64,000 nt of DNA from Bispira polyomma (taxonomy: Eukaryota), in assembly GCA_965649765.1 (NCBI GenBank), contig OZ287761.1, positions 3,596,001 to 3,660,000 on the forward strand, read 5' to 3'. Numbering within the stretch: position 1 is the stretch's first letter; every line of letters begins with the position of its first letter. Under the pieces are notes generated by a model. That model was not told the DNA's origin. It saw nothing but the letters and a program-made list of their open reading frames with translations, and made no database searches. Both the position numbers and the translations under genes were made by a program. This document shows positions 2,360 through 31,300 of this stretch, piece by piece.

Positions 2360-2645
2360 CCTCAACAACAAGCATAGCAGAAGCTTCTGCGACCCCAGCG
2401 GAATTTTCCGCTCGGATGGTGTACACCCCACCATCTTCTGGAAAACACTCAGGGATGTTCAGCCTTGACCTCCCGGGGCTGGGATCACTGATCTGATACA
2501 CCTCATTGGTGTGGATGGGTTTGCCATTGAAAAACCACGACAACGCAGGGAGGGGATCACCCAGCATGCAACACTCAAAACAGGCGCTCTCACCCTCGGT
2601 GACAAACTGGTCCTTGGGCTTCTCCTCCACCTCAGGGGACTTTTT
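2360..2645 (-). CDS. 286-nt exon encoding a complete I-set Ig domain
   Basis: KSPEVEEKPKDQFVTEGESACFECCMLGDPLPALSW...EDGGVYTIRAENSAG; TAG acceptor, GTATGT donor, phase 0 to 1. Confidence 0.93.
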
Positions 2646-5600
2646 CTACAAAACGAAAACAAAACAATTGCACCACAAGGGTCAAGGTTATGGAAAAAAC
2701 CCATTGCAACACAAGGTTATGAAAAAACCCTATAAAAAAAACCATGAATATACACAGGGGCCATATTCACAAAAAGGTCTTAGTCCTTACTTTGTCTTAG
2801 GCTTAACAATTTTGTCTTTGATTTTGGACTGAAAAGGGTAAGATTTTATGGTCTTAGTCCCAGTGACAGTAAGAAAAGATCCTTGCTTGGTGTTTTGCTC
2901 TTAACACCCTTAGACTATCAGTAGGCAGTCTTAAATGTTTTAGACATAAATGTTAAGCCTAAGACTAAGTTAAGACAAAGACCATTTGTGAATACAGCCC
3001 CATGAACTTTACCTCGACTGGAGGCATAAGAACATGAAAGTGAAACCTCCAATTCCAAGAGTGGTAAATTACTGTGTGTCCCTGGTTTTGGAATGGATTT
3101 TTCTGATTCTAAAAGTTTTACCTAAATATGGTTTTAATTTAAATTATAATCTACGAGTTTCCAATAATTGGCAGCAAGAGATATACAGTAATTTGCACAT
3201 TATTCTATTTTAATTTATGTTTTTCAAAAATCATCATCAAAATTTATAATAGTCTTATCATTAATCATATTACATTCATGTTTATCTAATGATTTTTTTT
3301 AAAAAGTACTTATAATATACATTATTTTCAAAGCCATTTTCAAAGCCATTTAAATTATGCCACCTTTTTGAGTAAATATTCTGCTAAATATTTTTTAAAC
3401 ATATTTATATGACTGATAAAAATTTAATTTTACAACTAAATCAAACAAAAGCATATTTACCTTTCGAAACAAAACATGAAACACTTATTACAATCCAAAA
3501 TTCATGCATTAAAATTCTAATTAAAACCAAAGTTAACATCACTGAACAAGGCAAAAAGAAACTATAACCAATGAAAAATGTGGATCAATATTTTATACAA
3601 TTATTACTATATAAACCCCCTCATCATGCACAAATGATCACTGTTGTCATGAAACTAGATTTGTTTTGGTACGACATTTTAAACGAAGTGCTGTCATCAC
3701 TCAATTCAACCATATGCCATGAATATCGGTTAAAACTATTTCTCAACTGTAGAATATATATTATGAATTTGTATAAGTTGTAAAATTACTTTTTTCACCA
3801 AAACTTAGTTAAATTAGTTTTTCTTGGGTAAATAATGTTCATAAATTGGTTAAAATTATGGACTAGAGTTTGGTTGTTATTAAAACTAAACAGTTTCTAT
3901 TTTCTACAGTGTAATGGTTAGAACTTTTATTAAAAGTGCAGTGGACAAAGTTTAGTTTAGGTATACCATCACTTTTAACACATCTTGTGCCACCTCACAA
4001 CAGGCAGTTCACTGGTGGAGGAATTCAGATTAGGGTAGGTTGGTAGTCAAAGTTTTCTGCTTCTACAAACCACCTGCCTTCAGCAAGTCTGCTGCCAGGT
4101 ATTTTACATACAGGCAAGGGTCAAGATTTGAAGCTATGACTGCCTATATGTAGGTGGGAGTCTGTTACCACATTTCAATTTTCTACTGTATGTATTTGAA
4201 TTTAGTTTGGTTTTTACGACCCTTTCAACAGCTTAGGTCATATCCTAATGGCCAGTTTTAATGGTTGAAGAAACCAATGGTTGAAGAAACCAGTGCTGAA
4301 GACACCGGTCTACGGCAAGTACCTGACAAACTTTCCCACATAAAAGAACAAACAGGGATTCAATCGCACATTGGTGAGAGGCCAGTGATGGTGAAGTTAA
4401 TGCTTCCGACTACTAGGCTAGTGTGTGTAATGGTTAAAAACTATTTTTTATATTTTGCTCTTAAATCTATTATGTGAGTGCTGTAAATGTTTCCATGACA
4501 ACAGTGAAAACAAAAAACAAACCAATGATAAACAACAACAGATATATAAACAAATCACACCTTTTCCACAGAAGTATCATGCAAAGACCCGTTCGTTTTT
4601 CTAGCATGCAACGTTGTTTCCTTTGCTGTGTACAATCGTGGCGAGCGGTACTCCCTCGGGGTTGTTTCCACTTCCTGTTCAGCAGACTCCAACTCACTTG
4701 CAAGGTTGTCGCCCGCAGCAACAAACTCCTGTTGATAGGGCTGATACAGCGAACCTGACAGCCGCATACTGCGAGTGATAATAGAGCTGGCCTCGCTTTC
4801 AGCTACGTCAGACTCGTAACCGGGAGCAATGTCTTCTTCAAAGGCCTCGTGGCCTACGCTATATCCTAAAGGCATTTGTGTAAACTGCAAAGATGGAGTC
4901 CCTTCATTCTCTCCTTTCGAATCACCAGTGTTAGAGGTCGGGGACGATAGGTGGCTGTCCTTATTACTTGATGGAGAAAGTTTTAAAATATCGTCATCAT
5001 ATTCAGCTGACCTGTGAGCTATAGTTAGCGACTGATGCTCTACAGTTGGCGACTGATGCTCTATAGTTGGCGATTGACATCCCAATGATTCTTTGACCCT
5101 ATCTGTCTCATCCGTTTGGCTGTCTGTCTTCTGAAGTACACCTCTGAAGTCCATCTGTACTCCCCCTGTACTCGGCATTGACTTATTAGGTGTCCCTTTA
5201 GTCCTGTGTAAGACGTTTCTAAAGTCCAGCTGTTCCGTGCTACTGCCTTTCTTCTGTGACATCAACGCGGATGAAAGCCCAGCATTACCAGCTTCACTTA
5301 CCTTACTTAACACATTTCTAAAGTCACCCTGCTTCACGTTTACATCGTCTCTAGGACTCGTATCCCTTGGAGACGACTGCTGCTGTTTCTTCTTTTCCGG
5401 AGATTTCAATAGATCCCTAAAGTCCCTTTGCTGTAGCAGCTTATTGTCGGAAATTCCATCTTTTGGTGCATCTGAATCTGCTTTCTTGAGGACGTCTCGG
5501 AAATCCTGTTGTTGTTCTTCTCTTGCCTTAGGACTAACCACCGCCCCTTGCCCTGGTTTTTCCTTAGGACTCAAGACTTTCCTGAAGTCTTTCTGGCTTA

Positions 5601-8600
5601 CCTTTGACTCTCCATCTTTGTCTTTTGCAGACCATGGCTTTTCCTTTGGACTTAACACCTTCCTAAAGTCAGTCTGGTTTATACCGGTCCCCTTTGGTGC
5701 TGAAACATCTCCATCTTTGTGTATTGCCGACCTTCTGCCCGGCTTTGCCTTGGGAATCAATACTGTCCTAAAGTCTGTCTGGTTTAGGTCCGACTCTTTC
5801 TCTGTTGCCCTCGGTGCTGGTACACCTGCGGTTTTGTGTAAGACGCCCCTAAAATCTAACTGTTCAGAGGTAGCATGCACAAGGACCTGGTCAGTGGGTT
5901 TAGTAGTAGTGGAGGACATGCGACCATCACCACTAAGAGTAGGAGGACGTGATGGGGTGATAGTATTATTAGTCATTGTGGGGGGAGTTAGGACAGCTCT
6001 GAAGTCTGTCTGGTTAGTACTACTAGATAGTTCATGCGGTGAGGAGGAGGAATCATCCAACGGCCTCGGTCTAGCAAAGGCGCCTACCTCCTTTCTGTAA
6101 AAGACGACAGAATAGAATAGTTTAGAAATGTAGAAATGTCTCTGAATACAAAAGTACCTCTAATATCTGAAGAGGAATCACTAGAATATGAATTTAGTTG
6201 GGTTTTTACGTCGCTTATTAACAGCTTACAAGGTCATATATCACAATGGTCACATTTAATGGCGGAAGAAACCAGGTACTTAAGCCACTGTGTAAACCAC
6301 TGACAAACTTTGTCACATGAAGTAAAAGACGAAAGAATAAAATATATCTATTACAGTAGAACCTCTATTATCCAAACTTCTTATTATCCAAATATTTGAT
6401 TTTATATTATAAGTATTTTACTTTTTCTATAATTGTTTTATACTAAAAATAGTTCTTCTTTACATGGATACATTATTCATGTGGCTTTAATTTGCCAATA
6501 CATCTAGCAGCATTTATTTTTGGCAGCGTTTATCCTTGACACCAGCTGTGTACCACAGCCCGTATTCACAAAGGGACTTGGCCAAGTCTTAGGCTTAAAT
6601 CAGTATATTTTAGGGATAGATTTAAGCATAAGACTTGGATAAGTCCATTAGTAAATACGGGCGCTGCCGTAAGGTTCACCTGTTATTGCATACATCTGTG
6701 TAATTTACATAGTTATAGTTCCTTAAAGTAAAATTATTACCACTTTCTACCTTTGGAATGTTTTAAATTTACTAAAACTTCTTTACTAATGATATAGAAC
6801 TGTACTTTTTTCTTACATTCATATAGAGCAACGACCAAGGAACAAATAGCAAGATGACTGTCTTATGGTCAGTGTTACTTATTCTTATCATTAACACTAT
6901 TATTACACACGTTGGATCTAGACAACTATATGTCATTGAACATATAAAGACAAAATAAAGACTACTTACACTTCTTTCTTTTTCAGCTGTTTCTTAAAAT
7001 CAATCTTCTGCGTGACTTCTAGAAAAACATGACCACAAGTATTTGAGCAATAACATGAACTTTACCATCATTACCATATCTTTAACAGTTACCTCCATTA
7101 ACGTCTCTAAAATATACACCCTTGCATTTTTACCATATATTTTCTAACAATTACCCCACTAACATGTCTTAAATAAATGTCCTTTCACATTGACAGGACA
7201 ATAAAACGTTTAGCTTACAGGGGCGGTATTTCACAAAAAGGGCTAAGTCTAGACATTGTCCTAAAATCTGGCATAAAAATATACCATTTCTAAAATAAAG
7301 TCTCAGCTTAGCTCTTTTGTCGAAAACTCTCCCTCAACATGTATTTGTGAAAAACATAAACTCAGTCAAAAGTTGGACTATTACAGTATGTTAACATTTG
7401 TGATTAGCAAAAACCAACCGATCAAATATTCCTACAAGAAACCTTAATTAAGCTTTAATATTGTTCCAAATTTGAATGTTAAAAGATATTACGAAACAGA
7501 GAGAAGCTAATAAAGTATTCAAATACTAAATATTACAGATGTAACAAATTGCATAATCTAAACTACTGATGAAATTTGAAATATAGTAATTTGAATTTAC
7601 ATGTAATTGTGTTTCACCTCGCTTTCAACAGTTTAGGTCATATCATAATGGCCAGATTCAATGGTGGAAGAAACCAGGGTTGACGCCAATGTGTAAACCA
7701 CAGACCTACCACAAGTAACTGATAAACTTTTCCACGTGAAGGAACGAATGGGATTCGAACCCACATTGGTGAGAGGATGAAATGAAATGATAAGAGTGAA
7801 GTCCACACAAATGCATGCTAAAAAGCCAAAAACACCTCACTTCCCTGAGCAATACACAAACTCCTCCCGACTATGACATCACAGTGACATCATCAGTCAT
7901 GTGACTTGGGTAAAGGTGGCGGTGGCGGTTGCATGGTTTATATTACATATATATAGCGTTGTTACACGGCAGTATTTTATATATAGAATATACATGAAAA
8001 ACACTGGCAGGGGAAATAGGTGACACACATACACACACACAATTGTATTTGGTTATTATTTACACAAGTGTTTAGAATTAAAGGTGATATTCCTACAGTC
8101 AAACCACTCCTATAAGTCGAAACATCAAGGGACAACTAGAAATACCCTCTACTTAGGCAGAATTTCCACTTAACAGGGTGGATTTTGAAAAGAAATTGCC
8201 TTTAGTAGGATTCGAGATATTTTCATTCACATAAAAGGGGACTTGCCTTAATAGAGTTCTACTTAAAGGGGTTTGACTGTAGTTAAGATAGCAAAACTAA
8301 ATACCTCTATTATCTGAACTATTACTGTCTAAATATTAAATATTTTATGTAGTAAACCGAAATTCTGTTAAATTATTCTCCAAAATTTATTTCCGAATGT
8401 TTCAATCTAATAAATTTATCAGTTTTTTTTTTTTTTAAGAATCTTCTGCAAACATATTTCTGTCCCCCTATTTTGGGTTCAGATAATACAGGTCTTGCGG
8501 TTTTGATAATACAGGTCTTGCGGTTTTAATATTTACAAAGGGTAAATTTTACAGCAAATTATACAGAGATTTCCATCAAAACAATAAATAAAATATTGAA

Positions 8601-11600
8601 CAAAGAAATTTGTTAGAAAAAACAACATATTGCAAAGTGATTAAAAACAGTTGTAAGGTTCTCCCCAAAACTGGTGTTCGTCAGGCAAATTTTAGTCTCA
8701 ACCTCGAGATTTCTTTATGACCTAAAAGCCTGAGCAGAAACGAAGCGCACAGCACAAAACGATCATCAAATACAATGAACACCAATTTAGCAAATGTTTT
8801 GGGGGGCTAACTGACGCAGCATTTTAGATTATATGTCTCTCTTGGCGACACTAACGCAGCACATACAGGAACCTGTTAAACGCTTAGCAACAGTTATTTT
8901 TTAAAATGATGGGTGAAGACAAAGCCATGACAAATTAGTAAGTAAATCTCACACCACAGCTGCTTCAGTTGATTCAATTAAATTTAACAAATTTTAAGAC
9001 CATATTTCCAACAGTTATATTTAAAATGATGGGTGAAGACAAACTCATGGCAAATTAGTAAGCAAATCTCACACCACAGCTGATTAATAGCCCTGTCACA
9101 CCTACACGTGCAGGAGCTTTGTGTGTGATGTTTTTAATTGTTTAGAAACTTAGAACAGACGTAGTAGAAGGTAATGCAAAAGTGAGGATCCCTGGTGCAT
9201 TCGTTCCCGGACGTTGCTTAATGGATATCGTTCAGGAAACGTCTCCGTTTGGTCTGCTACCACGATTATTTCAAACTGTTTGAAATAATCGTGACAGAGC
9301 TTTCCGTTTCTCAAGGACATCTCCACTCATCTTTGTAAGTAGCAGTAAGTAGCACGAAGTAGTGATTCGTCTCCACTTGTCTGTATTCGTCGTGGAACGT
9401 TTCACTAAGCATCATAACGCACCAGAACGCAGCCGTAAGTAGCAGTCACAAAAACGTCACAAAATGTCACAATCGACTGCACCTTTGTCAAAATGACGTC
9501 ACTTTGAAACAAAACTACACCTTTTTTAGATATATTGCTTTGCTATGTTGTGAGACGATAGCACGTGCAGGTGCGACCGAGCTTTTAGCTGATTCAATTA
9601 AATTAACAAATTTCAAGACCATATTTCCAAATAACACCCAGTCCTGGTGTCTTGGTGGTGACTTAGTGAAGCATGGACCAAGGAAGAAAGTTTAAAGTAG
9701 ATCTGCATAAAACTTGTTTGCCCCTTGGCATATAATTAAATAAATCAATATTTAATTCATTAATGATAAAATTATAATGTCCTAATATAGGCGATTGCTA
9801 GATTAAAAAGGCCTATACAGGTTGACATATTGAAATAATGTGAAAGAAAAAGGTTAATAGTCAATCTCCAACATTTAACATCCTTAAATATCATTTTATA
9901 TAGTAAAATTAAGATGTACAATGAACCCTCTATTATCCGAACATATTAGGGGAGATCACGATTTTGTTCGGATGATACAAGGTTCTTAAAACAGAAGATA
10001 TATTTTATTTTTATTAGAATTTTAGAAAATAAACAAAGATTTTAAATTTGGAAATTGTTGATTGTACAAAGATTATATTAAATAATTATTATAAAATTAA
10101 ATTAAAAAGACAAATTAAGAAAACAGGTGAGGGAAGGATAGACAAAATATAAGGTCACAATTAGAGCATTGAAAAATAAAAACATTGAATAAATGAATAC
10201 ATAAAATAACTGTAAATTAAAGGATTCCCTTCCATCCCACACACACACAGATAAATATATGGATAAATATTAATATAAATGTGGGAGTTACATATAAATA
10301 CCAGGAGTGGCTGTACTCGTAAACATTCAATTCTTAGAATTTTCTTAGTTTCAGATTTTTTGGTGAAATAATATCTTCAGCCAATGAAATTGTATGAGGC
10401 AAATGTCTTCAGCCAATGAAATTGTTTGGGACAAATGTCTTCAGCCAGTGTTATTGTTTGAGACAAAAGTTAAAGTAGGATCAGAATCTTTGTGTATAGT
10501 AGCTCAGATATACATGTAAGCATTTCCAACAATATATCCATTATAAACAGTAAGAAATTAGTAAAAAGCCATTTTTCCATTGCGTGTAAATTTCTTTTTT
10601 TCATAGTTGTGAACAAATAACAAATCAGTTTTAGACACAAATATTTCACAAAAAAAAAAAAGAAGCTCTCCAAAAATATTTATTTTAATTTGACCTTGAC
10701 CCTACCTTTGACGATTAAGGATACTGTGACCTTGACCTCTCCGTATTCGTTGATGACAATCAGCGTGAACTTGCCGGCGTCCGCCGCGTTCACTTTGTGT
10801 AAGACGAGCGTGCTGACGTAAAGGTTATTGTCCTCGGTTGCCGTGGCGATCTCGTAACGGTCCACCTGGTGTTCAATGGTCGTCTTGTCCTTCTGCCAGG
10901 TGATCTGTAGAGGGAGATAAACGGTTCTAAGTTTTAGAATTCTGAGCTCGTCTTCACAAAATGGTCTTCGTCTGAACTTAGTCGTAACCTTAACATTTAT
11001 GTCTATAAAACATTTAAGACTGCCTACTTTCAGTCTTAGTGTTAAGAGCAAAGTGAACACTAAGCAAACATCTTTTCTTAATGTTTCTGGAACTAAGACC
11101 AAAATCCAAAGCTTAAGACTAACTTATGACGAAGACCTTCTTTGAATACGGCCTACACAGGCTTACTCAGGTGTTCCTTTGAAATGACCACTATGATACT
11201 CAAAGGTCACCGTATCTCCATCGTGAGTAAATGACTGGCTTAGTGAGGTGACTAAATGACTGGTTTACTCAGGTGTACATATGAAATGACCTCTATTTTA
11301 CCTGTGGCTGAGGCTTGCAATTCAGTTTACACTCAAAGGTCACCGTTTCTGCATCGTGAGTAAATGACTGGCTTAGTCAGGTGAGAAAATGACTGGCTTA
11401 CTTGTGATTACATACAAATTTACCTCTATTTTACCTTCGGCTGCGGCTTTGCGTTCAGTTTACATTCAAAGGTCACCGTCTGTCCCTCGTGAGTAAATGA
11501 CTGGCTTAGTCTATTTTACGTGTACATATGAAATGACGTCTATTTTACCTGTGGTTGCGGCTTGGCATTCAGTTTACACTCAAAGGTGACCGTTTCTCCC

Positions 11601-13336
11601 TCATCCACCACTTGGGCTTTGGGTTTGGACACGATGGTCGGGGCGATGCCTTCCTTCTTGACGGGGGACGGACTCTCCGGGGCTGTCATAGAAACAAGGG
11701 CGGGAAAAACATGGTTAAACTTAACACACAGAACATTACTAATCTGAAGTCTGAGTACAGTAGAACCTCTATTATCCAAACTCCTATTATCCAAATATAT
11801 AATTTTATGAACTCACTTACACTCTACCTAACTAAAATTCCACTTTTAATTGATGAACCTTCTATTATCCAAACAAAATCTGGCTTCCCCCTGCATGTTT
11901 GGATAATGGAGGTACTGCTGTGCTACTATTTGCTTTGACAACAAATTCTGGAATTCACTGTGTACAGGGCGCTGCCATATTAAAAGTAGTTCGCTGCTAC
12001 TATTACAGGATTAGGGTTTCAGTGTCATCCTTAAAGGTTATTATTGTGTATTAGTACGCCAAAATTCAATATGGCCAAGCCCTGTCCAGTAAATTCTAGA
12101 ATTTTTTTTATATATGTCTTCACTACGAAAAGATATTTCACAAATACTATTTTCCTTAGGTGTCAAAATAGTATTTCATTTCTCCTTCAGTTCCTTGCAT
12201 ACAATAGGAAATTGTTATTGAATGCCAGAAGTAGTCTATGGTGTGGCTGTCTGTTAATCTCTTACTAGAAAAATTTCCTTCAGTTCCCGGAGATAGTTTT
12301 CTCTTGGGGTTAAAAGGTGGAAAGTTACAGATATTGACATGGAAGAAGACAAATTTGAAAAAGCAATATTAACAGTATAGCATGACCTGATTTTTTTTCT
12401 AAACTTTAGATTAGAAGTATGTAGAACAATCATTGCATTAAAACTGATTGATTTGCTTGAGCAATTCTGTTATAATTCATACAATTAAAGCAACTAGAAA
12501 GCTTTGCCATACTAATCACTTAATTACAATAATCTCCGAATATATTTTTTTCCCAAGAAGCATATGAAACCCCTCTTCACAAAGAGCAAAAGTCAGGGTT
12601 TCTTTGCAAAGAAAATATTTACAGATGAAGTTATAGTGTTTATTATTGTAGCACTGGCAAAAGATAATTTATAACCAACTGTTTGTTTTACCAAACTTTC
12701 CGACATGAAGGAATAAACAGGATTTGAATCCACAGTAGTAAGAGGCCAGTGATTGTGAAGCAGGCCTTTCTAACTTGTAGCTCACTACAAACTCTCAAGT
12801 GCAGATGTACCTAAACAAGTCAGGATTTGCTGGGGCGGTATTAACAAAATGGCTAAACAAAGACTTTGTCTTAAATCTAGCACAAAAAATATACTACATC
12901 TAAGACAAAGTTTCGGCTTGGACCTTTTGTGAATACGGCCCTTGTAATATAGTCAATAAGCTGCTTAAACGTTGTTTTGCTAAGATACAGTGTCTCTACG
13001 GTGACTGCCAATCAAAACGTACCTAAGACAACTAAATCTGCTGAACACGTTGCAGTACCATGGCTATTTTTAGCCACGACTGTATAACGGCCAGTATCCT
13101 CAGGGTAGGTTTCCTTGATCACTAACGAGCACAGCTTGTCCTCGTCGTAAAACTGCATGAAATCGTCAGACTGTTCCACCACGCTACACTCGTGGAACCA
13201 TGTGACCAGCGGTTTGGGGTTACCCAATACCGTGCACTCGAACAGGGCCGGGGAGCCGTCCTGTACATGCTGGGAAGTGAGGAGGCGGGTAATCTCAGGA
13301 CCCGCGGGTGACCCCTCTAGATCTTCAGCTATACAT

Positions 13337-13367
<31 letters not shown>

Positions 13368-16300
13368 AACAGGCTGGGTATGGGTTGGGAAGAAAACGGT
13401 AACACACACAGAAACAAAGCTGACACTTCGCAGGCTTATAAACACACATATCAATATACAGGGGTGGACAGCTTAGTGGACGCAACAGCCATAGCAAACA
13501 GTAACTTTAAATATAAATATTTTATCCATTTAACAAGTAATCTGACCCACTTTGGATGCAAAGTCTGTAAGAAAATGAAACTAGTGTTATATTTACTCTA
13601 TATTTTACAGATTACTTTTAAATGGAACAAATTTTATATTTCAAGTTACTGTCTGTTATGGCTCTCCTGTCCACTCAGCTGTCCAACCCTGTACTCTCAG
13701 ATACTACAAGTATAACATAAGGAATCTAAAATTTCAAACTGTATTTAAATTCGCCCCATCCTAAAATTTAAGCCAACTCAATTAGAACAATTAAAACAGG
13801 GCAAAAAATAACTGGACTTTACGTGAGTAAGGCCAAATAGTCACAAAAAATCTCAATTTCAGCAAGTATTACCCTCAATTCTTCCAAAAAACACCAACAT
13901 TTACTAGGTAGATAATTTTAGATTCCTTGCTCTATATACACTTGAATGCTTTTATAGTTAAACCACTTTAAGTCGAATGTCAATGTACGAAAATAAATAC
14001 CTCTACTTTAGCAGGATTTCCACTTAACAGAATAGATTTCAAAGTAACAGGCCTTTTGCTTGGTCCACTTATATGAACACTATCCTTGTTTTTGTCAGAA
14101 CATCAAGCCATGCTCTAAATGATAAAATATTTTACTGCTCAATAAATAAACCAAAATTAACTTGATAAACAACAAAACCAATTTTTCCCATGAAATGAAG
14201 CAAATTAAATTTTTTATAAACAAAATGTATACCCTAAATGCTTTCAAAATCTTGACATGATGTGTGTAGCAAATGGGATAAAAATAAGAAGAAAGAGAAT
14301 AATAGTGGTGTAAAAATACATGGATTTAAAAGTACAAAAGCTAGAACACAAAAGACATTACCAGAGGCATTCTAACTAAAGCTCACACTAAATAGATATA
14401 TCTTTACAACAGAACAGAGGTGTCAGATTCACAAACAATCTTTTTTTATTGGTTACGGTTTGAATTTCTTGATACAAAAAGAAAGAACTTAAATTTAGAA
14501 TTTAGTCAGGTGTTCACGTCCTATCTGAAACCACTGTGTAAATCACCTGACAAATTTTCTTACATGAAGGAACGAACAGGGATTGAAACCCACATATTGG
14601 GGAGAGGCCTGTGATTATGAAACAAACATCTGTCACCACTAGGGCCACTGCAACCCCCACATATATGCTATGGTACGTACCACTTGTTAGAATTAAAAGC
14701 AATCAGATTGCTTCAAGTTTGATTAGCCAATAAAATATCTGGATACAAATACACAAGTGTAAAAAGCTTAGAATGCAATCTCAATTTAGCAGTAAGAATG
14801 TTTGCGAATCCGAGTCTAAGGGTGATATTCAGAAAGAATCCTTAGAATTTTTTTTAAATGTTTAAGAATGTTTTTGAGTGGCATACCAAGACAGACATAA
14901 AGGCAGAGATTCTCTTACTTGACACGTGAGGTAGGCGTTCTATGATCTTACTCAGCTGGTCGCCCACTAATTGCTCATATTCCTGCTTTTCCTTTAGATA
15001 CTGCCCGGGCACGTAGCCCTCCCGCTTATCGAACACTTTCCTCACCATCCACCAATCCTCCATTGTGGCGTCCAGTAATTCTAGCTTCTCCCCTTCATGA
15101 AGAGAGAGCACGTCATCCGACTCCGGTTCGTAAGCAGTGACGGCGATGTACACATTTGCGTCGTCTGCCGACGTAGTCAAACTAGCAGCGGAGGTGTTGG
15201 GTGGGTACATGACATACTCTTCCTGTGTTTTGATTGGTCGGTGATAACTGGGTGAGTGTAGAGGAGGGAGGGACTCACTCCTTCGTTCTATCGGGGACAT
15301 TGGACCCGAGGGTGGCCTTATGGCCAAGAGAGAAACATTTGGCGAAGAAGTCTGCATAGGGAAACTATCCAAACTATCTGTCAACGTTTTCTTTGTTAAC
15401 GTAGTTTGCTCCTTTTCACGCGTCCTGCTGGATTCACTGAGCCCAGTATCTGTGTGTACCTCTGTTTTCTCCTCTATGGACACGTCCCCGAATTCTGACA
15501 GTGACATGGTGACGGTCTTCACTTCCGTCACTTTGGTTTCGATGGAGATCTCATCAAAAGTTTCCCGTTCGTCCACTTTGACGGATTTATCCACTTCCTG
15601 GGAGAACTGCATTAGCGCCTCGGGATCTATCTGCGGAGGTAGCGGAGGCACATTACCAGAAGTCACACTGAAGACGTTATCATCTGCATATGGTTGAATC
15701 TCAAGCGGTCCTTGTACTACTTCTAGGTCTACCTGTGGTTCCTGGTTATCTTTGTCTTGTTCCGTTGTGGGACTGAGAACGACCCTGACAATGGGTGGTA
15801 TATCTGCTGAATCTGCTGTCATGTCTTCTCTGATTGGTTCCTCGTCCTTGTATCTATCTGATAAATCTTTTTTGATTGGTTCCTTATCCGGTACTTCCTT
15901 TCCTCCACTTGCAAAAGCCTTTTTGAATGGTTGTTTATCTGGTACTTCCTTTCCTCCACTTGTTAAATCCTCTCTGATTGGTTGCTTATCCTGTATATCC
16001 TTTCCTCTACTTGTTACAGCCTCTCTGATTGGCCCCTTATGCTTTAAACTGATTGGATCCTCCTCCTCCTCTTCCTCAATGTTAGACAACAGAAGCCCCC
16101 TTCCTTCATCTGTAGCACTAAGCTGTTCATACTCACTTTCTAAGTCAAACTTCATGGACTTTCTGTTCAATGCCACATAATCATCATCTTCATCGGATTC
16201 TGAGCTTGATTCGGAGGCATCTGTTATACAGAGCTTCAGGCTACCTTCTTGACCCAATTGCTGTAAAGCTTCGTACTCATTCGCACTGTCATCTTTTGTG

Positions 16301-19300: not shown

Positions 19301-22300
19301 GAATGTCTCCAGGACTGGAACCAATTTTTTTCTGGTTCTTTTTATAAAACCACAGTATATGGTTCTACTCCTAATTTGGTTCTACTCCTAATTTAAAACT
19401 AGTCTATTTTAAGTGTTGGGACCACAAAAATTGACTCTAGTTGACTCTGGCAAGATTTGACTTGCACTGGTTCTAGTTACAGAAAGAATCTGCTGTATAT
19501 GTGTACACAGAGGTAATAAGGGTAAACACAAACAAGCGCGCTTGTATGTATGCATTAAATATGTACAAAACAAATGCAAAATGCAGTTGCAAATCTGGTA
19601 GATGGCATCGACATCAGAGAAACCTACAACAAACACAGGGTCATGCATTAAACTGTATAAACAAAATGAACAACATGAGATAAGGTGAACCACACACAAT
19701 ATAATGCAAAACACACATATGTGTATACTAGATCTAAGAACAAAGTCTCGCCTTAGCCGGTTTGTAGAGGCATCAGGGCTGGTATTCTCGAACATTTACT
19801 CAGCTCAAACTCATAGTCAACTTAAATCTGGATTCTCTATAACTCTGAATACAGTAGAAATATTTGACTTTAAATCTGAAATCTGACTTGATATTTGAAT
19901 TCAGGGTTAAAATCTTTATTAAAATGAATGGTCACAAGTATAGGTTATTTCCATGTACAATGCTTTCCACATGGCTTATATTATATTAGTTAAGTATGAG
20001 TTTAAGCTGAGTATACATATGTGAATACGGCCCCAGGAACCTGAAAGAAACACAAGGTGTCACGCATTACCTCTGAACAAACATTTAAAGGATCTGAAAT
20101 GGTACCAAAAGAAAATGGTACTAATAAAAACAAGTATGTATAGATATGTAACCACAATCAAATGACAGCAATGTTATATTAATAAAACAATCCATGTATC
20201 AGTGTTAAATCAAAGGTAAAAGGGAGGTATAACCTTCAAAAACAAGACTTCCTGCGTACATTTCTAGAATTCACTAGACCTAGGGGGACGGCACTCAAAT
20301 TCTAATGCTTTGATACAGTAGGAAGAACTATTTTCAATATGGACGTGCCCTGTCATCAGTGAATTCTATAGAATTTTACCCCCTTGCTGCAAAGAATACA
20401 ACACGAAAACAAACTATTTTACATTCATTGTAGATACCAAAAGTCAAACTTTTTTTGTTTAAAAAAATAGTTTCCGTCACTTTAAAAAAAACAAAAAACA
20501 CACGCTCAAACACACATCATGCACAAAACGGGAGCATGCACGTCTCCATGCCAACAAACGAGGGAGGGGATCTCCATCATTTCCATTGCATTTCTTTTTA
20601 CCTTCCTGGGTTGTGAAGTCCATGGTGACTTGAGCAGATTCAGAAGTCAGAACGGACTCTTCAGATACCTTTGCCTCCTCAGTGACGGCAACCTCTGTAG
20701 CCGACGGCGCTGTCACCATGGAGACATCGGTTAGGTCCATAACAACCTCCGACGTGACGTCTTGCTGAGCTGTCACTAGGGTTTCTTCTGGTTTCTCAGC
20801 AGCCGCTGTGTCCATGGTACTGGGAACTATTTCCTCCGGTTTGACGACCTCCTCACTTGGTTTCTCCATCTCCTCCTTGGCTTTCTCTTCCTGCTCCACT
20901 ACCATCTGTTCTTCAACCAAAACCTTGGTCAATTCGAGTTTAGTAGCAGTTTCTTCCTCCCTCACTAGCTCACCCAATTCGGCTGTTTCTGTTGTTGCAG
21001 GTTTAGTACCTTCCTCCGTAACTTCCATACTCACTGTGGTTTCTTGTGGCAAGGCCATAACCTCGGATTTCGGTTTGACCTCGGCGGTAGATGTTTCCAT
21101 GGTGATTTCGAAAGATGTGGCGGATTCAGAAGTGGCTTCTTTTGTGCCTTCGCTTACCAGTTCAATTTTCATCTCTGCTTCTTGCTGGGAAATAAGCGCT
21201 TCAGATTTAGGCCTTATTTCTGCCGTAATCGTTTCTCCAACAACCTCGCTTGGTTCAGTGGCTTCAGAAGAGACAGGAGTGACTCCTTCAGTGGTCAATT
21301 CGATCTGCATTTGTGCCTCCTGAAGACCAATCTGAGTGCTAGGTTGGACTTCCATGGTCACTGTGGAGATTTCTTTGGTAATCTCTTGGGCAGCAACAGT
21401 TTCTGATGTCTCTTCAAACGTCTCTTCTTGTGTTTGCTCTGGGGAAACCCTACCTGCCTGTTCCTGCACCAGAACTTCTGTTGGTTCGTTCTTTGTCATC
21501 TCTGTTACTGTGGGAACATCAGTTTCTTCGGGTGCCACAGTCATGCCTGTTATTTCAGAAATACCTTCTTTGATATCTTCGGGCTTCAGCTGGGCCTGCT
21601 GTTCTTCAGACAGAACTTCGGATTTCGGTTTGACCTCGGCAGTGGATGTTTCCATGGTGATTTCATAAGAAGTCGCGGATTCAGAGGTGGCTTCTTTCGT
21701 GCCTTCGCTTACCAGTTCAATTTTCATCTCTGCTTCTTGCTGAGAAATAAGCGCTTCAGATTTAGGCTTTATTTCTGCTGTAATTGTTTCTGCAACAACC
21801 TCGCTTGGTTCAGTGGCTTCGGAAGAGACAGGAGTGACTCCTTCAGCGGTCAATTCAATCTGCATTTGTGCCTCCTGAAGACCAATCTGAGTGCTAGGTT
21901 GGACTTCCATGGTCACTGTAGAGATTTCTTTGGTAATCTCTTGGGCAGCAACAGTTTCTGATGTCTCTTCAAACGTCTCTTCTTGTGTTTGCTCTGGGGA
22001 AACCCTACCTGCCTGTTCCTGCACCAGAACTTCTGTTGGTTCGTTCTTTGTCATCTCTGTTACTGTGGGAACATCAGTTTCTTCGGGTGCCACAGTCATG
22101 CCTGTTATTTCAGAAATACCTTCTTTGATATCTTCGGGCTTTAGCTGGGCCTGCTGTTCTTCAGACAGAACTTCGGATTTCGGTTTGACCTCGGCAGTGG
22201 ATGTTTCCATGGTGATTTCGTAAGAAGTCGCGGATTCAGAGGTGGCTTCTTTCGTGCCTTCGCTTACCAGTTCAATTTTCATCTCTGCTTCTTGCTGGGA

Positions 22301-25300
22301 AATAAGCGCTTCAGATTTAGGCTTTATTTCTGCCGTAATTGTTTCTGCAACAACCTCGCTTGGTTCAGTGGCTTCGGAAGAGACAGGAGTGACTCCTTCA
22401 GCGGTCAATTCGATCTGCATTTGTGCCTCCTGAAGACCAATCTGAGTGCTAGGTTGGACTTCCATGGTCACTGTGGAGATTTCTTTGGTAATCTCTTGGG
22501 CAGCAACAGTTTCTGATGTCTCTTCAAACGTCTCTTCTTGTGTTTGCTCTGGGGAAACCCTACCTGCCTGTTCCTGCACCAGAACTTCTGTTGGTTCGTT
22601 CTTTGTCATCCCTGTTACTGTGGGAACATCAGTTTCTTCGGGTGCCACAGTCATACCTGTTATTTCAGAAATACCTTCTTTGATATCTTCGGGCTTTAGC
22701 TTGGCCTGCTGTTCTTCAGACAAAACTTCGGATTTCGGTTTGACCTCGGCAGTGGATGTTTCCATGGTGATTTCGTAAGAAGTCGCGGATTCAGAGGTGG
22801 CTTCTTTCGTGCCTTCGCTTACCAGTTCAATTTTCATCTCTGCTTCTTGCTGGGAAATAAGCGCTTCAGATTTAGGCTTTATTTCTGCCGTAATTGTTTC
22901 TGCAACAACCTCACTTGGTTCAGTGGCTTCGGAAGAGACAGGAGTGACTCCTTCAGCGGTCAATTCGATCTGCATTTGTGCCTCCTGAAGACCAATCTGA
23001 GTGCTAGGTTGGACTTCCATGGTCACTGTGGAGATTTCTTTGGTAATCTCTTGGGCAGCAACAGTTTCTGATGTCTCTTCAAACGTCTCTTCATGTGTTT
23101 GCTCTGGGGAAACCCTACCTGCCTGTTCCTGCACCAGAACTTCTGTTGGTTCATTCTTTGTCATCTCTGTTACTGTGGGAACATCAGTTTCTTCGGGTGC
23201 CACAGTCATGCCTGTTATTTCAGAAATGCCTTCTTTGATATCTTCGGGCTTCAGCTGGGCCTGCTGTTCTTCGGACAGAACTTCCAAGGGAAGCTTCTTG
23301 GCTGCGACATCTGTCTCGGGTGCAACTTGTCCCGGTTCAACGGATTCGGGGGCATCTTTGAATTCCTCTGGTTCTGTTTCCTCAGGTTTCACTTCACCGG
23401 ACTGGATTGTAACCAGGGTTACTGGTTTTACTTGAGCTTCAGCTGTTGTTGTGGCTTGGTCAATTTCATGAGGGGAGACAGCTTCCTCCGTCACCTTTTC
23501 TTCAGAAGGTGCCACCTGTTCCGGTTCAACTTCATCAATGATCTCCTTGGTCTGGGTTGCTTCTGGTAGTTGAACATCGGCAGTGCTGATTTCTAAAACA
23601 ACATTTTCTTCTGTTACCTGTTCTGTGGTAGTCTCATTCAGTCCCTCTGTAACTAACTCTGCCTTCAGTTCCGCTTGCTGCATTTCAACCTGGACCTCCG
23701 GTTTCACCGAAACTTCTGTCGTTCCCAATTCCATGGAAACCTCATCCACTGGAGCCGTTTCACCAACTGGTACGACAACATCTTCAGAAATGACCTCAGA
23801 CTTCAGCTCAGCTTGCTGAGTTTGAATCTGGGTTGTTGGTTTCACTTTTATTTCAGCTGTCACTGTTTCTTCAGGAATATTTCCTTCTTCTGCAATTTCT
23901 CCCACCTGTATCACAACTTCCTCAGAGATTACCTCGGGCTTCACTTGGGTTTCCTGTGGCTGAATCTGAGTTACAGGTTTGATTTTAACTTCGGCTGTAA
24001 TCGTTTCTTCTTGTATTTTCCCTTCCTCTGCAACTTCACCAACCTGCATAACAATTTCTTCAGAAACAATTTCCTGTTTCAGTTCAGTTTCCTGTGCCTG
24101 AATCTGTGTTTCGGGTTTAACTTCAATGTCTGCAGTCACCGTTTCCTGTGGTATTTTGGCTTCCTCTGCGATCTCACCAAATTGCACCTCTATACCATCG
24201 GATATGACCTCTGTTTTCACCTCAGCCTGCTGCATCTGAATCTGTGTTTCCTGTTTAATCCTCACTTCAGCGGTTACCGTCTCTTCCAGTATCTTCCTTT
24301 CCTCTGCGACCTCTCCAGTGGCTTTCTGGATCTCTTCAGTCACGGTCTCCGTGGAGAAATCCCCCTTAATTACCATTGTCTGCTGTTGCGGCTGAATCTG
24401 GAGCTCTGCCAAGGACGTCTTTCTGGATGTGTCCACCATCTCCGCAGTTTCACTAGCCTCCGGAACAATCTCCGAGGTCATGGTCAAATCTACTTCCGAC
24501 TTCTGGATTTCCACTTGCACGGTCTCTTGGGACTTGACATCAGCAGTGGAAATTTCTGTCGCAATTTCGGCAGATTTCACCTGGTCAGGCTTTGGTTCGG
24601 TCACTTCGTCCGTGACCCCTTCCACCCTGAGGTGTACGACTTGAGGCAACACAGTGGTCTCCTGTTTACTCTCCATGGTGATCGTGGATGTGTGCACTTG
24701 CGTGTCGGACTCCATTGCTCTCACCTGAGTTTCTCCAGATATCTCCAGGGTAACCTGGGATGTATCCAGGGTCACCGGTTGCATAGCCACCTGCTCGGCG
24801 GTGGGTGCGGCAATACCCAGTGACGTCGTTTCTATGACAGTCTCGGTTTTCTGCGGCTCTGCTTTGACAGTGGTCGCCTCTCTTGTGCCTGTAGAAATCT
24901 GCAGTGTGACTTCTTCTCCTTCAATCATTTCCCGAGTCACAGACTCGATCTCAGCCTTTGCCATCTCCATGGTAACTTGAGCTAAAAATGAAGTACATCG
25001 TGAATTTAATGCAAAACTTGAAAAAAAATTCCACGAATGAAAAGTTGATTATCTAGTCTATAACCACATATCAAAAATTTTTAACTAAAGTAACAGGCTT
25101 TTTGCAAAACCATTGTGTGAAGAGAAAAAATAAAAACTAGTAAAAATATTTAAAAATAAAAAAAGGATCAAGGAAGAACTAGTGAAAATCTTTAACATGC
25201 GTCTCATTTCTGAATATAAAGTACAAGATTATCAATGTAATATCACTATGAAAAAAAAGTTACTATTAAGCACATATAACTGATATTATTACATCATATG

Positions 25301-28300
25301 TATTTAAAATTGTTAAACATTATGAGAAAATTATGGTACAAATATTAGTAAATTGTCAACATTAGAAGTACTACATGCATTTTTAAAAGAACCAAAAAAT
25401 ATGCGTTTGTTGATAACAACGAACAAAATATGACACTGAAATAAAAACCTAAAAAAAAAAATAACAGATTTTTATTAATAATCAAATAAAAAATGACTGT
25501 GCTAAAAAAATGTTGTGTGCAAAAGCTAAAAATAAACACAAAAAAAATATATGTTTAAAATTGACAAAACTAGATGTTACAACTGTTATTTATAATGAAG
25601 CATTTCTACAAACATTAGTTTTGCGTTATTAGATGTAATACACGCCACCCTTTTATAAATTGTTTGCTAATTCAACCAATTACTACAACCAAAAAATCTA
25701 AATATTTTGCAATATTTATTGCCATTGTTTTTCAAACTGCAAATTTTAGCCTAAATATATAAAGGTTCTGAAAAGCAAATCAGTTTATAATAAAAGCATT
25801 ACATTTACCGAGATAATCGTCATTAGTGACAACAAATAATGCAACTGTTAAATAAACAAATTCACTATATCCTTACAAATTATGTAACAACATACAACAT
25901 TCATTATTAGAAACAACAATAGTAACATAAGCAAATAAAAATGGAAAATTGCACAAAAACATTTTAGCATTTATTTCCAAATATTAAAATAAATATTAAA
26001 CAAATACATGTACCAACAATAAAATATTTATTATCAATATTAAATCATAAAATAAATAATAAGAACAACTGAATTGACACATAAAATAACTTAAAAACAA
26101 GAGGAAAGTGACCTTGCGGTCACAAATCTCGGAGACGTGTATCTATTTCTCAAGCTGCCTACCTAAAAGTAAACCAATATTATCTGTCAATGTATAAGTT
26201 TTACAACCAAAAAATATTGTTTACCTATAACCTAAAATACAATTGTCAATATATAAGTTACAAAAAAGGAAATTATTTGACAACCTATTTAAATATTAAA
26301 AAAATATTATCTGTCTACCTGTCAACTTGTCAACCTGTCTACCTAAACGTAAAAAAAAATTAATGAACTGTCTATCTGTCGACATATCAACATGTAACCT
26401 GACAGGTTGACAAGTTAAAAAAAAAATTTTTTTTTAATTTTTTGATTTAAGGTAATTTTTTATGGTTTATGGTTAGGGTTTAGAGAGTTAGCCCTAACTA
26501 CCTGTCCAACTGAAAAAAATTAAATTTCTACCTGTAGGCCTGTCTACCTAATTTTTTTTTTTTTTTGTTAACCTGTCAACCTATCTGCCTAGAAAAATAT
26601 TTATTTTTGTTGTCAACTTGTCGACCTGTCTACTTACAAAAAAAAAAAATAATAATTTTTTTTTGGTCAACCTGGGGAAAAAACATATATACATGTATAT
26701 ATAGTAGGATCTATATTTCAATTTATTTAAATATCCCTACTGGTAAACGGAAATAGATGTATTCATACAAATGAGGGGGAATACTAGACTTCTTTAGATA
26801 TCCCAATATAGTTTCTAAAAGCAATAAATTGCTAAACGAAATTTAAAAGCAAGTACGTATCGATTCAGTATTTTCACTATAAATCCTTTAATGTTGCCCA
26901 CTTCCGGGTAGCGTTTTAGACGAAACCTCGTCTCGTGTGTTAAATAAAAGATAGTATAGTGAGGGAGGAAGTTCTGAAAGCCGAGTAACCCCATAAAATG
27001 CCCCAAATATGATGATAATGTAGGCGAAAATAGAAGAAGTTTGCAGACTTTGCCTCGACTCGTGTGTTAATAAAATATATTCTAGCGAGATAGGTAGTTT
27101 TAAAAGCCGAGTACCCAACCGAAATTCCCCAAAAGTGATGAAAACGTAAGCGATTTGCAAGCCGCTCGTGTCAATAAACAATACGAAAAATGATGACGTC
27201 AACACAAAAATGGCGAGAAATGCTAGTACCAAGTATCTGAATACTTAAAAATAAAAAAGACAGTAGTGTGGCGCCATCTAGCGGTCGAGACCAAAGTTAA
27301 AAAGGGTGCGTTTTCGCCAATTAGAAGCATATTTCAAAGAAATGGATTTTCCCGTCAGTATGGGTGTATATATATCGTATATATATCCCAAACCCTAGTC
27401 TTTGTCACATATATATATACCTATTGAAACCTACGAATCTGACTGGCCCTACGATAAATGGACATAACAAAATATGCGGTAATTGCGAGGTCAAAGGTTA
27501 AATCTTATTTTACAAACAAAATAAAAAATTAATAGATATATTAAGGCTTCTGACTCGTCCTTAGTACCAACCACATATAACTGCCAAAAACGGACTTAAA
27601 ATAATGAACAAAACTGGTAGAAAGTGCTGTCTACAGACCAAAAACATCTTCTCAATACATGATCTCGGATGGCCCCGCCCTCCGAGATAAAAATAAAAAT
27701 ACAACAATACACTAATACAAATCGCCTTGTGCAGTTTCATGCAGGCATTAAATACATCCGTTCGAACCAACAATACAATTAGTTTTACAACATGTTCATC
27801 CCAGTGCCAAATACCTACGACCAGTACCTGTAGAATCTTCCAGTACTTTCAATTCCATCTCGGCTTCAACATCGGGTACAACCATCTCTTCTACAAGTTC
27901 CACTACGGTTGTTTCAACCAGTTTTTCATCCGGTATTTCACTTGATACAACTTCAGAAACTGTTTCTTCTTCTTGAAGGTGAACTTTTGTCTCAGATGGC
28001 ATTTCAATACCTGCAGTTGAAATCTCAAATTGAACCTCTTCAAATTCAGGTGTCTCAGTTGGTTGAATCTGAATATCACTTGAAACCATTCCTGAAACTG
28101 TCTCATCTACTTGAGGTTCAACCTTTGTCTCAGATGGCATTTCAATTCCTGCAGTGGAGATATCAAACTGAACTTCCTTAAATTCAGTTGTTTCACTTGG
28201 TTGAATCTGAATTTCAGTTGATACCATTTCTCGAACTGTCTCATCTACTTGAGGTTCAACCTTTGTCTCAGATGGCATTTCAATTCCTGCAGTTGAAATC

Positions 28301-31300
28301 TCAAATTGAACCTCTTCAAATTCAGGTGTCTCAGTTGGTTGAATCTGAATATCACTTGAAACCATTCCTGAAACTGTCTCATCTACTTGAGGTTCAACCT
28401 TTGTCTCAGATGGCATTTCAATTCCTGCAGTGGAGATATCAAACTGAACTTCCTTAAATTCAGTTGTTTCACTTGGTTGAATCTGAATTTCAGTTGATAC
28501 CATTTCTTGAACTGTCTCATCTACTTGAGGTTCAACCTTTGTCTCAGATGGCATTTCAATTCCTGCAGTTGAAATCTCAAATTTAACCTCTTCAAATTCA
28601 GGTGTCTCAGTTGGTTGAATCTGAATATCACTTGAAACAATTTCTCGAACTGTCTCATCTACTTGAGGCTGAACCTTTGTCTCAGATGGCATTTCAATAC
28701 CTGCAGTAGAGATATCAAACTGAACTTCTTCAAATTCAGTTGTTTCACTTGGTTGAACCAGAACTTCACTTGATACAACTTCAGAAACTGTTTCTTCTTC
28801 TTGAAGGTGAACTTTTGTCTCAGATGGCATTTCAATACCTGCAGTTGAAATCTCAAATTGAACCTCTTCAAATTCAGGTGTCTCAGTTGGTTGAATCTGA
28901 ATATCACTTGAAACCATTCCTGAAACTGTCTCATCTACTTGAGGTTCAACCTTTGTCTCAGATGGCATTTCAATGCCTGCAGTGGAGATATCAAACTGAA
29001 CTTCTTCAAATTCAGTTGTTTCACTTGGTTGAATCTGCATTTCACTTGATACCATTTCTTGAACTGTATCATCTACTTGAGGTTGAACCTTTGTCTCAGA
29101 TGGCATTTCAATTCCTGCAGTGGAGATATCAAACTGAACTTCCTTAAATTCAGTTGTTTCACTTGGTTGAATCTGAATTTCAGTTGATACCATTTCTTGA
29201 ACTGTCTCATCTACTTGAGGTTCAACCTTTGTCTCAGATGGCATTTCAATACCTGCAGTTGAAATCTCAAATTGAACCTCTTCAAATTCAGGTGTCTCAG
29301 TTGGTTGAATCTGAATATCACTTGAAACCATTCCTGAAACTGTCTCATCTACTTGAGGTTCAACCTTTGTCTCAAATGGCATTTCAATTCCTGCAGTGGA
29401 GATATCAAACTGAACTTCCTTAAATTCAGTTGTTTCACTTGTTGGAATCTGAATTTCACTTGAAAACATTTCTGGAATTGTTTCTTCTTCTTGAAGTTGA
29501 ACTTTTGTCTCAGATGGCATTTCAATGCCTGCAGTGGAGATATCAAACTGAACTTTTTTAAATTCAGTTGTTTCACTTGGTTGAATCTGCATTTCAGTTG
29601 ATACCATTTCTTGAATTGTATCATCTACTTGAGGTTGAACCTTTGTCTCAGATGGCATTTCAATTCCTGCAATGGAGATATCAAACTGAACCTCCTTAAA
29701 TTCAGTTGTTTCACTTGGTTGAATCTGAATTTCAGTTGATACCATTTCTTGAACTGTCTCATCTACTTGAGGTTCAACCTTTGTCTCAGATGGCATTTCA
29801 ATTCCTGCAGTTGAAATCTCAAATTTAACCTCTTCAAATTCAGGTGTCTCAGTTGGTTGAATCTGAATATCACTTGAAACAATTTCTCGAACTGTCTCAT
29901 CTACTTGAGGTTGAACCTTTGTCTCAGATGGCATTTCAATACCTGCAGTAGAGATATCAAACTGAACTTCTTCAAATTCAGTTGTTTCACTTGGTTGAAC
30001 CAGAACTTCACTTGATACAACTTCAGAAACTGTTTCTTCTTCTTGAAGTTGAACTTTTGTCTCAGATGGCATTTCAATACCTGCAGTTGAAATCTCAAAT
30101 TGAACCTCTTCAAATTCAGGTGTCTCAGTTGGTTGAATCTGAATATCACTTGAAACCATTCCTGAAACTGTCTCATCTACTTGAGGTTCAACCTTTGTCT
30201 CAGATGGCATTTCAATTCCTGCAGTGGAGATATCAAACTGAACTTCCTTAAATTCAGTTGTTTCACTTGTTGGAATCTGAATTTCACTTGAAAACATTTC
30301 TGGAATTGTTTCTTCTTCTTGAAGTTGAACTTTTGTCTCAGATGGCATTTCAATTCCTGCAGTGGAGATATCGAACTGAACTTCTTCAAATTCAGTTGTT
30401 TCACTTTGTTGAATCTGCATTTCACTTGATACCATTTCTTGAACTGTATCATCTACTTGAGGTTCAACCTTTGTCTCAGATGGCATTTCAATTCCTGCAG
30501 TGGAGATATCAAACTGAACTTCCTTAAATTCAGTTGTTTCACTTGGTTGAATCTGAATTTCAGTTGATACCATTTCTTGAACTGTCTCATCTACTTGAGG
30601 TTCAACCTTTGTCTCAGATGGCATTTCAATTCCTGCAGTTGAAATCTCAAATTTAACCTCTTCAAATTCAGGTGTCTCAGTTGGTTGAATCTGAATATCA
30701 CTTGAAACAATTTCTCGAACTGTCTCATCTACTTGAGGTTGAACCTTTGTCTCAGATGGCATTTCAATACCTGCAGTAGAGATATCAAACTGAACTTCTT
30801 CAAATTCAGTTGTTTCACTTGGTTGAACCAGAACTTCACTTGATACAACTTCAGAAACTGTTTCTTCTTCTTGAAGGTGAACTTTTGTCTCAGATGGCAT
30901 TTCAATACCTGCAGTTGAAATCTCAAATTGAACCTCTTCAAATTCAGGTGTCTCAGTTGGTTGAATCTGAATATCACTTGAAACCATTCCTGAAACTGTC
31001 TCATCTACTTGAGGTTCAACCTTTGTCTCAGATGGCATTTCAATTCCTGCAGTGGAGATATCAAACTGAACTTCCTTAAATTCAGTTGTTTCACTTGTTG
31101 GAATCTGAATTTCACTTGAAAACATTTCTGGAATTGTTTCTTCTTCTTGAAGTTGAACTTTTGTCTCAGATGGCATTTCAATGCCTGCAGTGGAGATATC
31201 AAACTGAACTTTTTTAAATTCAGTTGTTTCACTTGTTTGAATCTGCATTTCACTTGATACCATTTCTTGAACTGTATCATCTACTTGAGGTTGAACCTTT

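Follow-up and report, generated by a model that had tools for sequence, protein, structure and literature searches.

What is an array of actin-binding motifs of the myosin light chain kinase (MLCK) type doing in the middle of a titin-like gene, far from its kinase domain? The question is raised by one exon of Bispira polyomma (assembly GCA_965649765.1), located in the window analysed here, which is a stretch of 64,000 nucleotides at positions 3596001-3660000 of contig OZ287761.1 (C14) in a genome of 1.04 Gb. Coordinates refer to the window in forward-strand numbering unless a contig is named. The exon encodes ten copies of QxDFRxxL in basic low-complexity linkers, followed by an acidic tail. 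By analogy with MLCK, the array is best interpreted as a disordered, multivalent grip on filamentous actin (F-actin), predicted to fasten titin to the thin filament at a point within its elastic region, a reading to which we assign a probability of about 0.68.

Ten DFRxxL Motifs in a Single Exon

The array exon (4561..6094, minus strand; 1,534 nucleotides, AG/GT, phase 2 to 0) was delimited by six-frame translation, splice sites, and the junction residues of its closest relative, protein P0001. All ten motifs are contained in one minus-strand open frame (6159-4558), in the order and spelling of the original prediction, a model-made annotation of this DNA from its letters. In the direction of translation these are DFRAVL (5989..6012, D codon 6006), DFRGVL (5839..5862, D codon 5856), DFRTVL (5758..5781, D codon 5775), two copies of DFRKVL, each followed by SP (5653..5676, D codon 5670, and 5572..5595, D codon 5589), DFRDVL (5488..5511, D codon 5505), DFRDLL (5407..5430, D codon 5424), two copies of DFRNVL (5308..5331, D codon 5325, and 5209..5232, D codon 5226), and a second DFRGVL (5134..5157, D codon 5151). 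The core D-F-R-x-x-L is found in 10/10, as is Gln at -2, which the original prediction had given for all motifs, and Val occupies +4 in 9/10. Successive motifs are separated by 50, 27, 35, 27, 28, 27, 33, 33, and 25 amino acids (median 28), eight of the nine gaps falling within 25-35; the lower bound of the previously suggested spacing of about 25-45 amino acids is retained, whereas the upper bound has to be raised to 50. Shuffling the 510-residue exon 100,000 times yielded one motif in 435 cases and two motifs in none.

The 296-residue array is basic (53 K/R and 37 D/E, isoelectric point (pI) 9.9), the final 188 residues of the exon are acidic (pI 4.6), and the four large upstream exons have a pI of 4.05-4.8, in line with the predicted contrast between a strongly basic array and acidic spring exons. 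Pfam matched no family in the array exon, and fold prediction gave no domain in the array (mean predicted local distance difference test score 41); a few short islands scoring above 50 coincide with or adjoin the motifs, at low confidence. Its contour length is about 107 nm. DNA contigs from three runs of one study, possibly the assembly's own source, span the exon with zero differing letters.

Resemblance to the Actin-Binding Region of MLCK

In MLCK, three DFRxxL motifs bind F-actin with a dissociation constant of 0.26 µM, with one MLCK bound for every three actins, and their mutation weakens the binding (PMC2196421). The motifs are 28-29 amino acids apart, and targeting to stress fibres is better with five motifs than with two (PMC2185581). 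The identification of DFRxxL as the F-actin motif of MLCK, which was part of the original prediction, agrees with both studies. A 75-residue MLCK segment carrying the motifs diffuses along actin bundles, not along single filaments, and its binding is partly ionic (PMC4586593).

The array shares with MYLK products the core, Gln at -2, a spacing near 28 amino acids, basic disordered linkers, and adjoining I-set immunoglobulin (Ig) domains; MYLK-like fragments of fish and frog have a spacing of 26-32 amino acids and a pI of 9.4-10.1, next to a median of 28 and a pI of 9.9 here. It differs in number and place, with 3-5 copies in MYLK and 10-11 here (two were seen in the MLCK of this genome and four in that of Patella), the array being internal in titin and distant from the kinase. 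It also differs behind the core, where the fish and frog matches carry K/R-K-V at +7 to +9, residues mostly replaced in the array, often by serine or threonine followed by proline (S/T-P), with Pro at +7 in 4/10 motifs. The SFM motif of ITPKA and Lifeact (VxxLxxxFE) is likewise a short linear F-actin motif of disordered regions; the array was rejected as an instance of it, as the consensus differs and the array holds no match (bioRxiv 10.1101/2025.04.16.649135). Solved structures contained no such repeat (best E 0.56), and the ESM Atlas returned no usable match for the array and generic SH3 clusters for the SH3 domain upstream.

Full-text literature on DFRxxL dealt with MLCK in every title, and searches combining the motif with twitchin, titin, or mollusc found no titin array described, most subscription journals being outside this coverage. 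Likewise, the connectin/titin literature searchable here mentions neither a DFRxxL array nor an IQ motif in titin, and the accessible portion of a study that includes sequences from octopus, oyster, and annelids is silent on the motif, its supplements holding three chance 'DFR' strings in alignments (PMC12198301). Motif and family are thus both known, while no description was found of the motif in this copy number, position, and neighbourhood.

Selective Conservation of the Motifs

A profile of the ten repeats, searched against 1.84 billion proteins, returned 64 matches with 1-9 motifs each, 46 of which have three or four. The top match, P0001, corresponds to the array exon in a different assembly, with 49% identity, nine motifs, and residues that agree at both exon ends; when the repeat-free tail was the query, it was the sole match among 134 candidates (E 5e-10). 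Counting motifs in orthologues had been proposed as a check on the original prediction, and P0001 not only keeps nine but is identical to the array at 45/45 core positions, against 56/166 in the linkers. On this comparison, the motifs are selectively conserved in the orthologous exon.

Such a pattern also bears on a reading that we consider distinctly unlikely, namely that the exon, though real, is rarely included, or that its basic repeats bind a partner other than actin, for example titin's own acidic spring. A three-exon block containing the array can be skipped in frame (see below), the flanks of the motifs differ from those of MYLK, and only one close orthologue was found, all of which would suit it. 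Nevertheless, the core is invariant while the linkers drift, the conserved residues are those that define the actin motif of MLCK, and the spacing is held near 28 amino acids.

The tail was compared with those of 11 profile matches, using z scores against 500 shuffles. P0001 scored 21.8 and P0012 4.8 (0/500 shuffles); P0031, with the tail core in common, was borderline at 3.0 (6/500 shuffles), as was P0029 at 2.8. P0012 has seven DFR/DYR motifs, or eight counting a DFK variant, and P0031 has three, and both are probably more distant relatives keeping the array. One 20-residue segment of the acidic tail (4765..4824, minus strand) is identical at 20/20 positions of the alignment with P0001, and its core is also present in P0012 and P0031. 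As a separate observation, this segment is a candidate binding or phosphorylation site.

Of 20 profile matches looked up, those with names were fragments from fish and frog, the MLCK of Patella, one protein of Sycon that weakly matches smoothelin, and one of Percolomonas. P0022, with nine motifs, was rejected as a relative on account of its unrelated 75-residue tandem repeat. DFRxxL arrays were also noticed in non-kinase proteins, namely P0066 of Percolomonas (five motifs in its cluster mate P0006), the smoothelin-like P0037 of Sycon (four), and P0039 (four). At the DNA level, genome-wide patterns for the motif gave fewer matches than their controls (73 vs 85 and 681 vs 908). The only clusters in the first of these scans were the array exon and a triplet on contig C13, which was rejected as an array since no open frame of the surrounding 10 kb contains DFRxxL. 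Single matches on C2 and C6 lie outside credible exons, and one at C14:11.06 Mb belongs to the MLCK gene.

The Host Locus

The locus was mapped across 624 kb around the window, with approximate domain counts from our own profiles. It extends over about 520 kb of one strand, in the order of spectrin-like exons (judged by eye), about 32 Ig, eight long acidic frames, SH3, two Ig, the array, about 35 Ig, about 71 fibronectin type III (Fn3) domains with 37 Ig, a kinase, and six Ig. The eight acidic frames total 9,807 codons from stop to stop, some Ig and flanking sequence included, and the kinase exon scores 58-73 bits to twitchin, MLCK4, and titin kinases. With tandem Igs, spring exons, an Ig/Fn3 block, and a C-terminal kinase on one strand, the host is by its domain layout a connectin/titin gene, because it fits the 'connectitin' layout of SESTD1-CCDC141-titin (PMC12198301). 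The titin-like host of the original prediction agrees with this map. Features in common with connectin/titin ('connectitin', Drosophila Sls/zormin) are the tandem Igs, the acidic spring exons, the Ig/Fn3 block, and a C-terminal kinase of the titin/twitchin/MLCK group, besides a start that looks spectrin-like by eye.

Two other assignments of the host were rejected. Against the MYLK family, in which Ig-Ig-Fn3-kinase-telokin Ig follows the motifs, stand the 35 Igs and about 71 Fn3 that separate the array from the kinase, and a MYLK-type gene, the MLCK with two DFRxxL seen, sits elsewhere at C14:11.04-11.09 Mb, where it is collinear with P0027, the MLCK of Patella. Against twitchin stand the long acidic exons and the kinase, which scores 67 bits to the twitchin structure 1kob of the PDB, compared with 111 bits for a kinase exon on C7. 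The latter marks twitchin as a separate gene on C7, in which one DFRxxL was seen in 180 kb; another kinase at C7:9.76 Mb was rejected as twitchin, having no Ig or Fn3 exons within 200 kb. Elsewhere in the genome, another titin-family kinase gene at C2:76606565-76634206 has about 20 near-identical tandem Fn3 exons, a recent expansion, and intronless divergent actin genes are present on C2, C14, and C10 (L105:1498-2631, L106:1498-2637, and L107).

Between the array and the first Fn3 lie Igs, the frame of an IQ exon (223 codons), and two more frames, an acidic one of 441 codons and one of 1,086 codons. The last of these bears on an unlikely alternative, in which the array is chiefly part of a Sallimus/kettin-like isoform or gene of lesser length, which terminates about 15 Igs further on, before the Fn3 block. 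It would then anchor or bundle thin filaments close to the Z-line or dense body instead of short-circuiting a spring. The 1,086-codon frame, which is acidic (C14:3548022-3544778), has a phase-1 acceptor, a stop, no strong donor, and ATTAAA 311 nucleotides later, and in Drosophila, Sls contains just five Fn3 and has an isoform with an early stop (PMC9886281). On the other hand, the Ig exons flanking the frame have phase-1 junctions, so that the reading frame could continue into the Fn3 block and the 19 Igs still to come, and a first exon belonging to a second gene was not seen, no search aimed at one having been made. In its own right, the 1,086-codon frame is a possible alternative last exon, which would yield a titin that lacks the Fn3 block and the kinase.

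The Exon Chain and the Micro-Exon

The array exon is preceded by a micro-exon of 49 nucleotides (6970..7018, minus strand, phase 1 to 2; splice sites and frame joining) with the variant motif DFKKQL. An eleventh, variant motif on its own 49-nucleotide micro-exon had been predicted, and exon 7018-6970 indeed encodes DFKxxL (at 7001, minus strand, six-frame translation), Lys replacing the Arg of the core. The predicted exon join SH3-Ig-Ig-micro-exon-array-Ig-IQ has 0 stops and 11 DF[RK]xxL. In silico joining further indicated that the frame is broken when the micro-exon or the array exon is left out, singly or as a pair, and kept when the micro-exon, the array, and the next Ig are skipped as a block. 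Since its skipping breaks the frame, the micro-exon would be a required frame adaptor for the array exon, and since the other skips do so too, the array would be removable only as a three-exon cassette.

Upstream of the array, also on the minus strand, three very long acidic, E/V/T/P-rich open frames of the spring type (1,523, 2,068, and 1,901 codons) were found at 20480..42539 by six-frame translation and composition. They are followed by an SH3 domain with which an acidic exon ends (14989..15147; PF00018, E 4.5e-8), which bears out the predicted SH3-bearing host, by an I-set Ig exon (13023..13328; PF07679, E 5e-21, and junctions), and by a split Ig, the final one before the array (10706..11682, exons 11682-11549 and 10904-10706; Pfam and junctions). 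Beyond the array there is an I-set Ig exon of phase 0 to 1 (2360..2645, minus strand; Pfam and junctions). Two further observations concern this chain. The intron following Ig exon 11682-11549 holds three decaying copies of that exon's first half (11264-11515, minus strand), and the acidic exons contain near-exact tandem repeats at 21336-23432 (period about 555 nucleotides) and 27799-32315 (minus strand), indicative of a recently expanded spring.

One Ig downstream of the array, about 2.4 kb past the left edge of the window, an exon (C14, from 3593563 downward; L011:7563-7340) encodes an IQ motif of the neuromodulin type, with a PF00612 score of 21.1 bits against a cut-off of 20.3 (E 2.3e-4) and the consensus IQxxxRGxxxR. 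A scan of every minus-strand frame of the locus for the IQ consensus gave a single further match, which lies in a frame of 44 codons and was judged to be chance. By its consensus, the downstream IQ is the only credible IQ motif of the locus and of the calmodulin-binding type.

A Proposed Actin Grip in the Elastic Region

How would such an array act? Each motif would bind one actin subunit, as in MLCK, and the basic linkers may assist. Actin subunits along a filament are 5.5 nm apart; linkers of 25-35 amino acids, with a contour of 9-13 nm, would be enough to step between them, and 10-11 motifs would then grip a single thin filament over about 55-60 nm, or else link adjacent filaments. Because about 9,800 codons of long acidic frames lie upstream, and only about 700 unique residues (leaving out the probable alternative last exon) and about 35 Igs separate the array from the Fn3 block, binding of the array would take most of the spring out of play, and the remaining connection to the thick filament would be short and stiff. 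The grip may be a friction brake more than a fixed anchor, since the MLCK motif segment slides on actin bundles.

Shortening of the free spring by array binding would parallel a proposal for vertebrate titin, in which a thin-filament contact at N2A, at the same relative position in the elastic region, takes a compliant segment out of the spring (PMC5299520). This contact is debated and its binding site poorly defined in vertebrates, where it figures in the winding-filament hypothesis (PMC5299520). The likeness is one of position, and the part bypassed in Bispira would, in contrast, include long acidic exons. N2A is not known to have such repeats.

Several points weigh against a grip of this kind. 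The array exon may be rare, because the three-exon block is skippable in frame, and the affinity per motif may be lower than in MYLK, because the residues after the core differ. Tail similarity was none in 7 of the 11 matches compared, and breadth is thin, with one clear orthologue and two probable ones among the 64 profile matches. No longer relatives of the array exon and the SH3 region were found among proteins of 894-2,550 and 1,477-4,215 amino acids, ranges outside which full-length titins fall. Finally, a single transcript of 520 kb in Z-disc-to-thick-filament orientation is assumed by analogy.

Molluscan twitchin offers a further comparison, as a titin-family protein that links thick to thin filaments and reportedly contains DFRxxL, and the twitchin of this genome has one such motif; it differs in being a separate gene with one motif seen in 180 kb. 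Twitchin is regulated through PKA sites, for which the array has no counterpart. That the array is a twitchin-like catch tether, released by PKA phosphorylation, is very improbable. For it one could cite that phosphorylation governs the tethering of thick to thin filaments by twitchin (PMC5299520), the DFRxxL of the C7 twitchin, and the nine S/T-P of the array, in which 4/10 motifs have an S/T-P close behind them. However, a phospho-site scan of the array found zero R[RK]x[ST], the single KKxS and RRS are missing from P0001, and twitchin is that separate C7 gene. The original prediction had proposed PKA-type control through RRS and KKGS, which did not survive this comparison, and the many SP sites it had noted stand as nine S/T-P, some of them conserved, without PKA sites. 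S/T-P within four residues past the motif Leu occurs in 4/10 motifs here and 3/9 in P0001, so the conserved sites point to proline-directed kinases and not to PKA, S/T-P being a hint only.

For the actin grip, the neighbouring IQ motif and the S/T-P sites are candidate switches. Tentatively, and with more doubt than confidence, the eleven grips and the IQ motif may together form a switchable actin clutch, which Ca2+/calmodulin or proline-directed phosphorylation would engage, bypassing about 10,000 spring residues and setting active stiffness or catch-like holding.

Significance for the Titin Family

The binding of vertebrate titin to the thin filament, and with it active stiffening, is an open question (PMC5299520), and here a well-characterised actin motif stands at that position. 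If the clutch is true, the contact between titin and actin, a matter of long debate for vertebrate muscle, would exist here in an explicit form open to mutation. The combination of a high-copy motif, a calmodulin-type neighbour, and a removable splice cassette would make the titin-actin question cleanly testable. With one, two, and eleven copies in three titin-family genes of this genome, and arrays in sponge and protist proteins as well, DFRxxL may be widened from a feature of a kinase to a general, expandable module.

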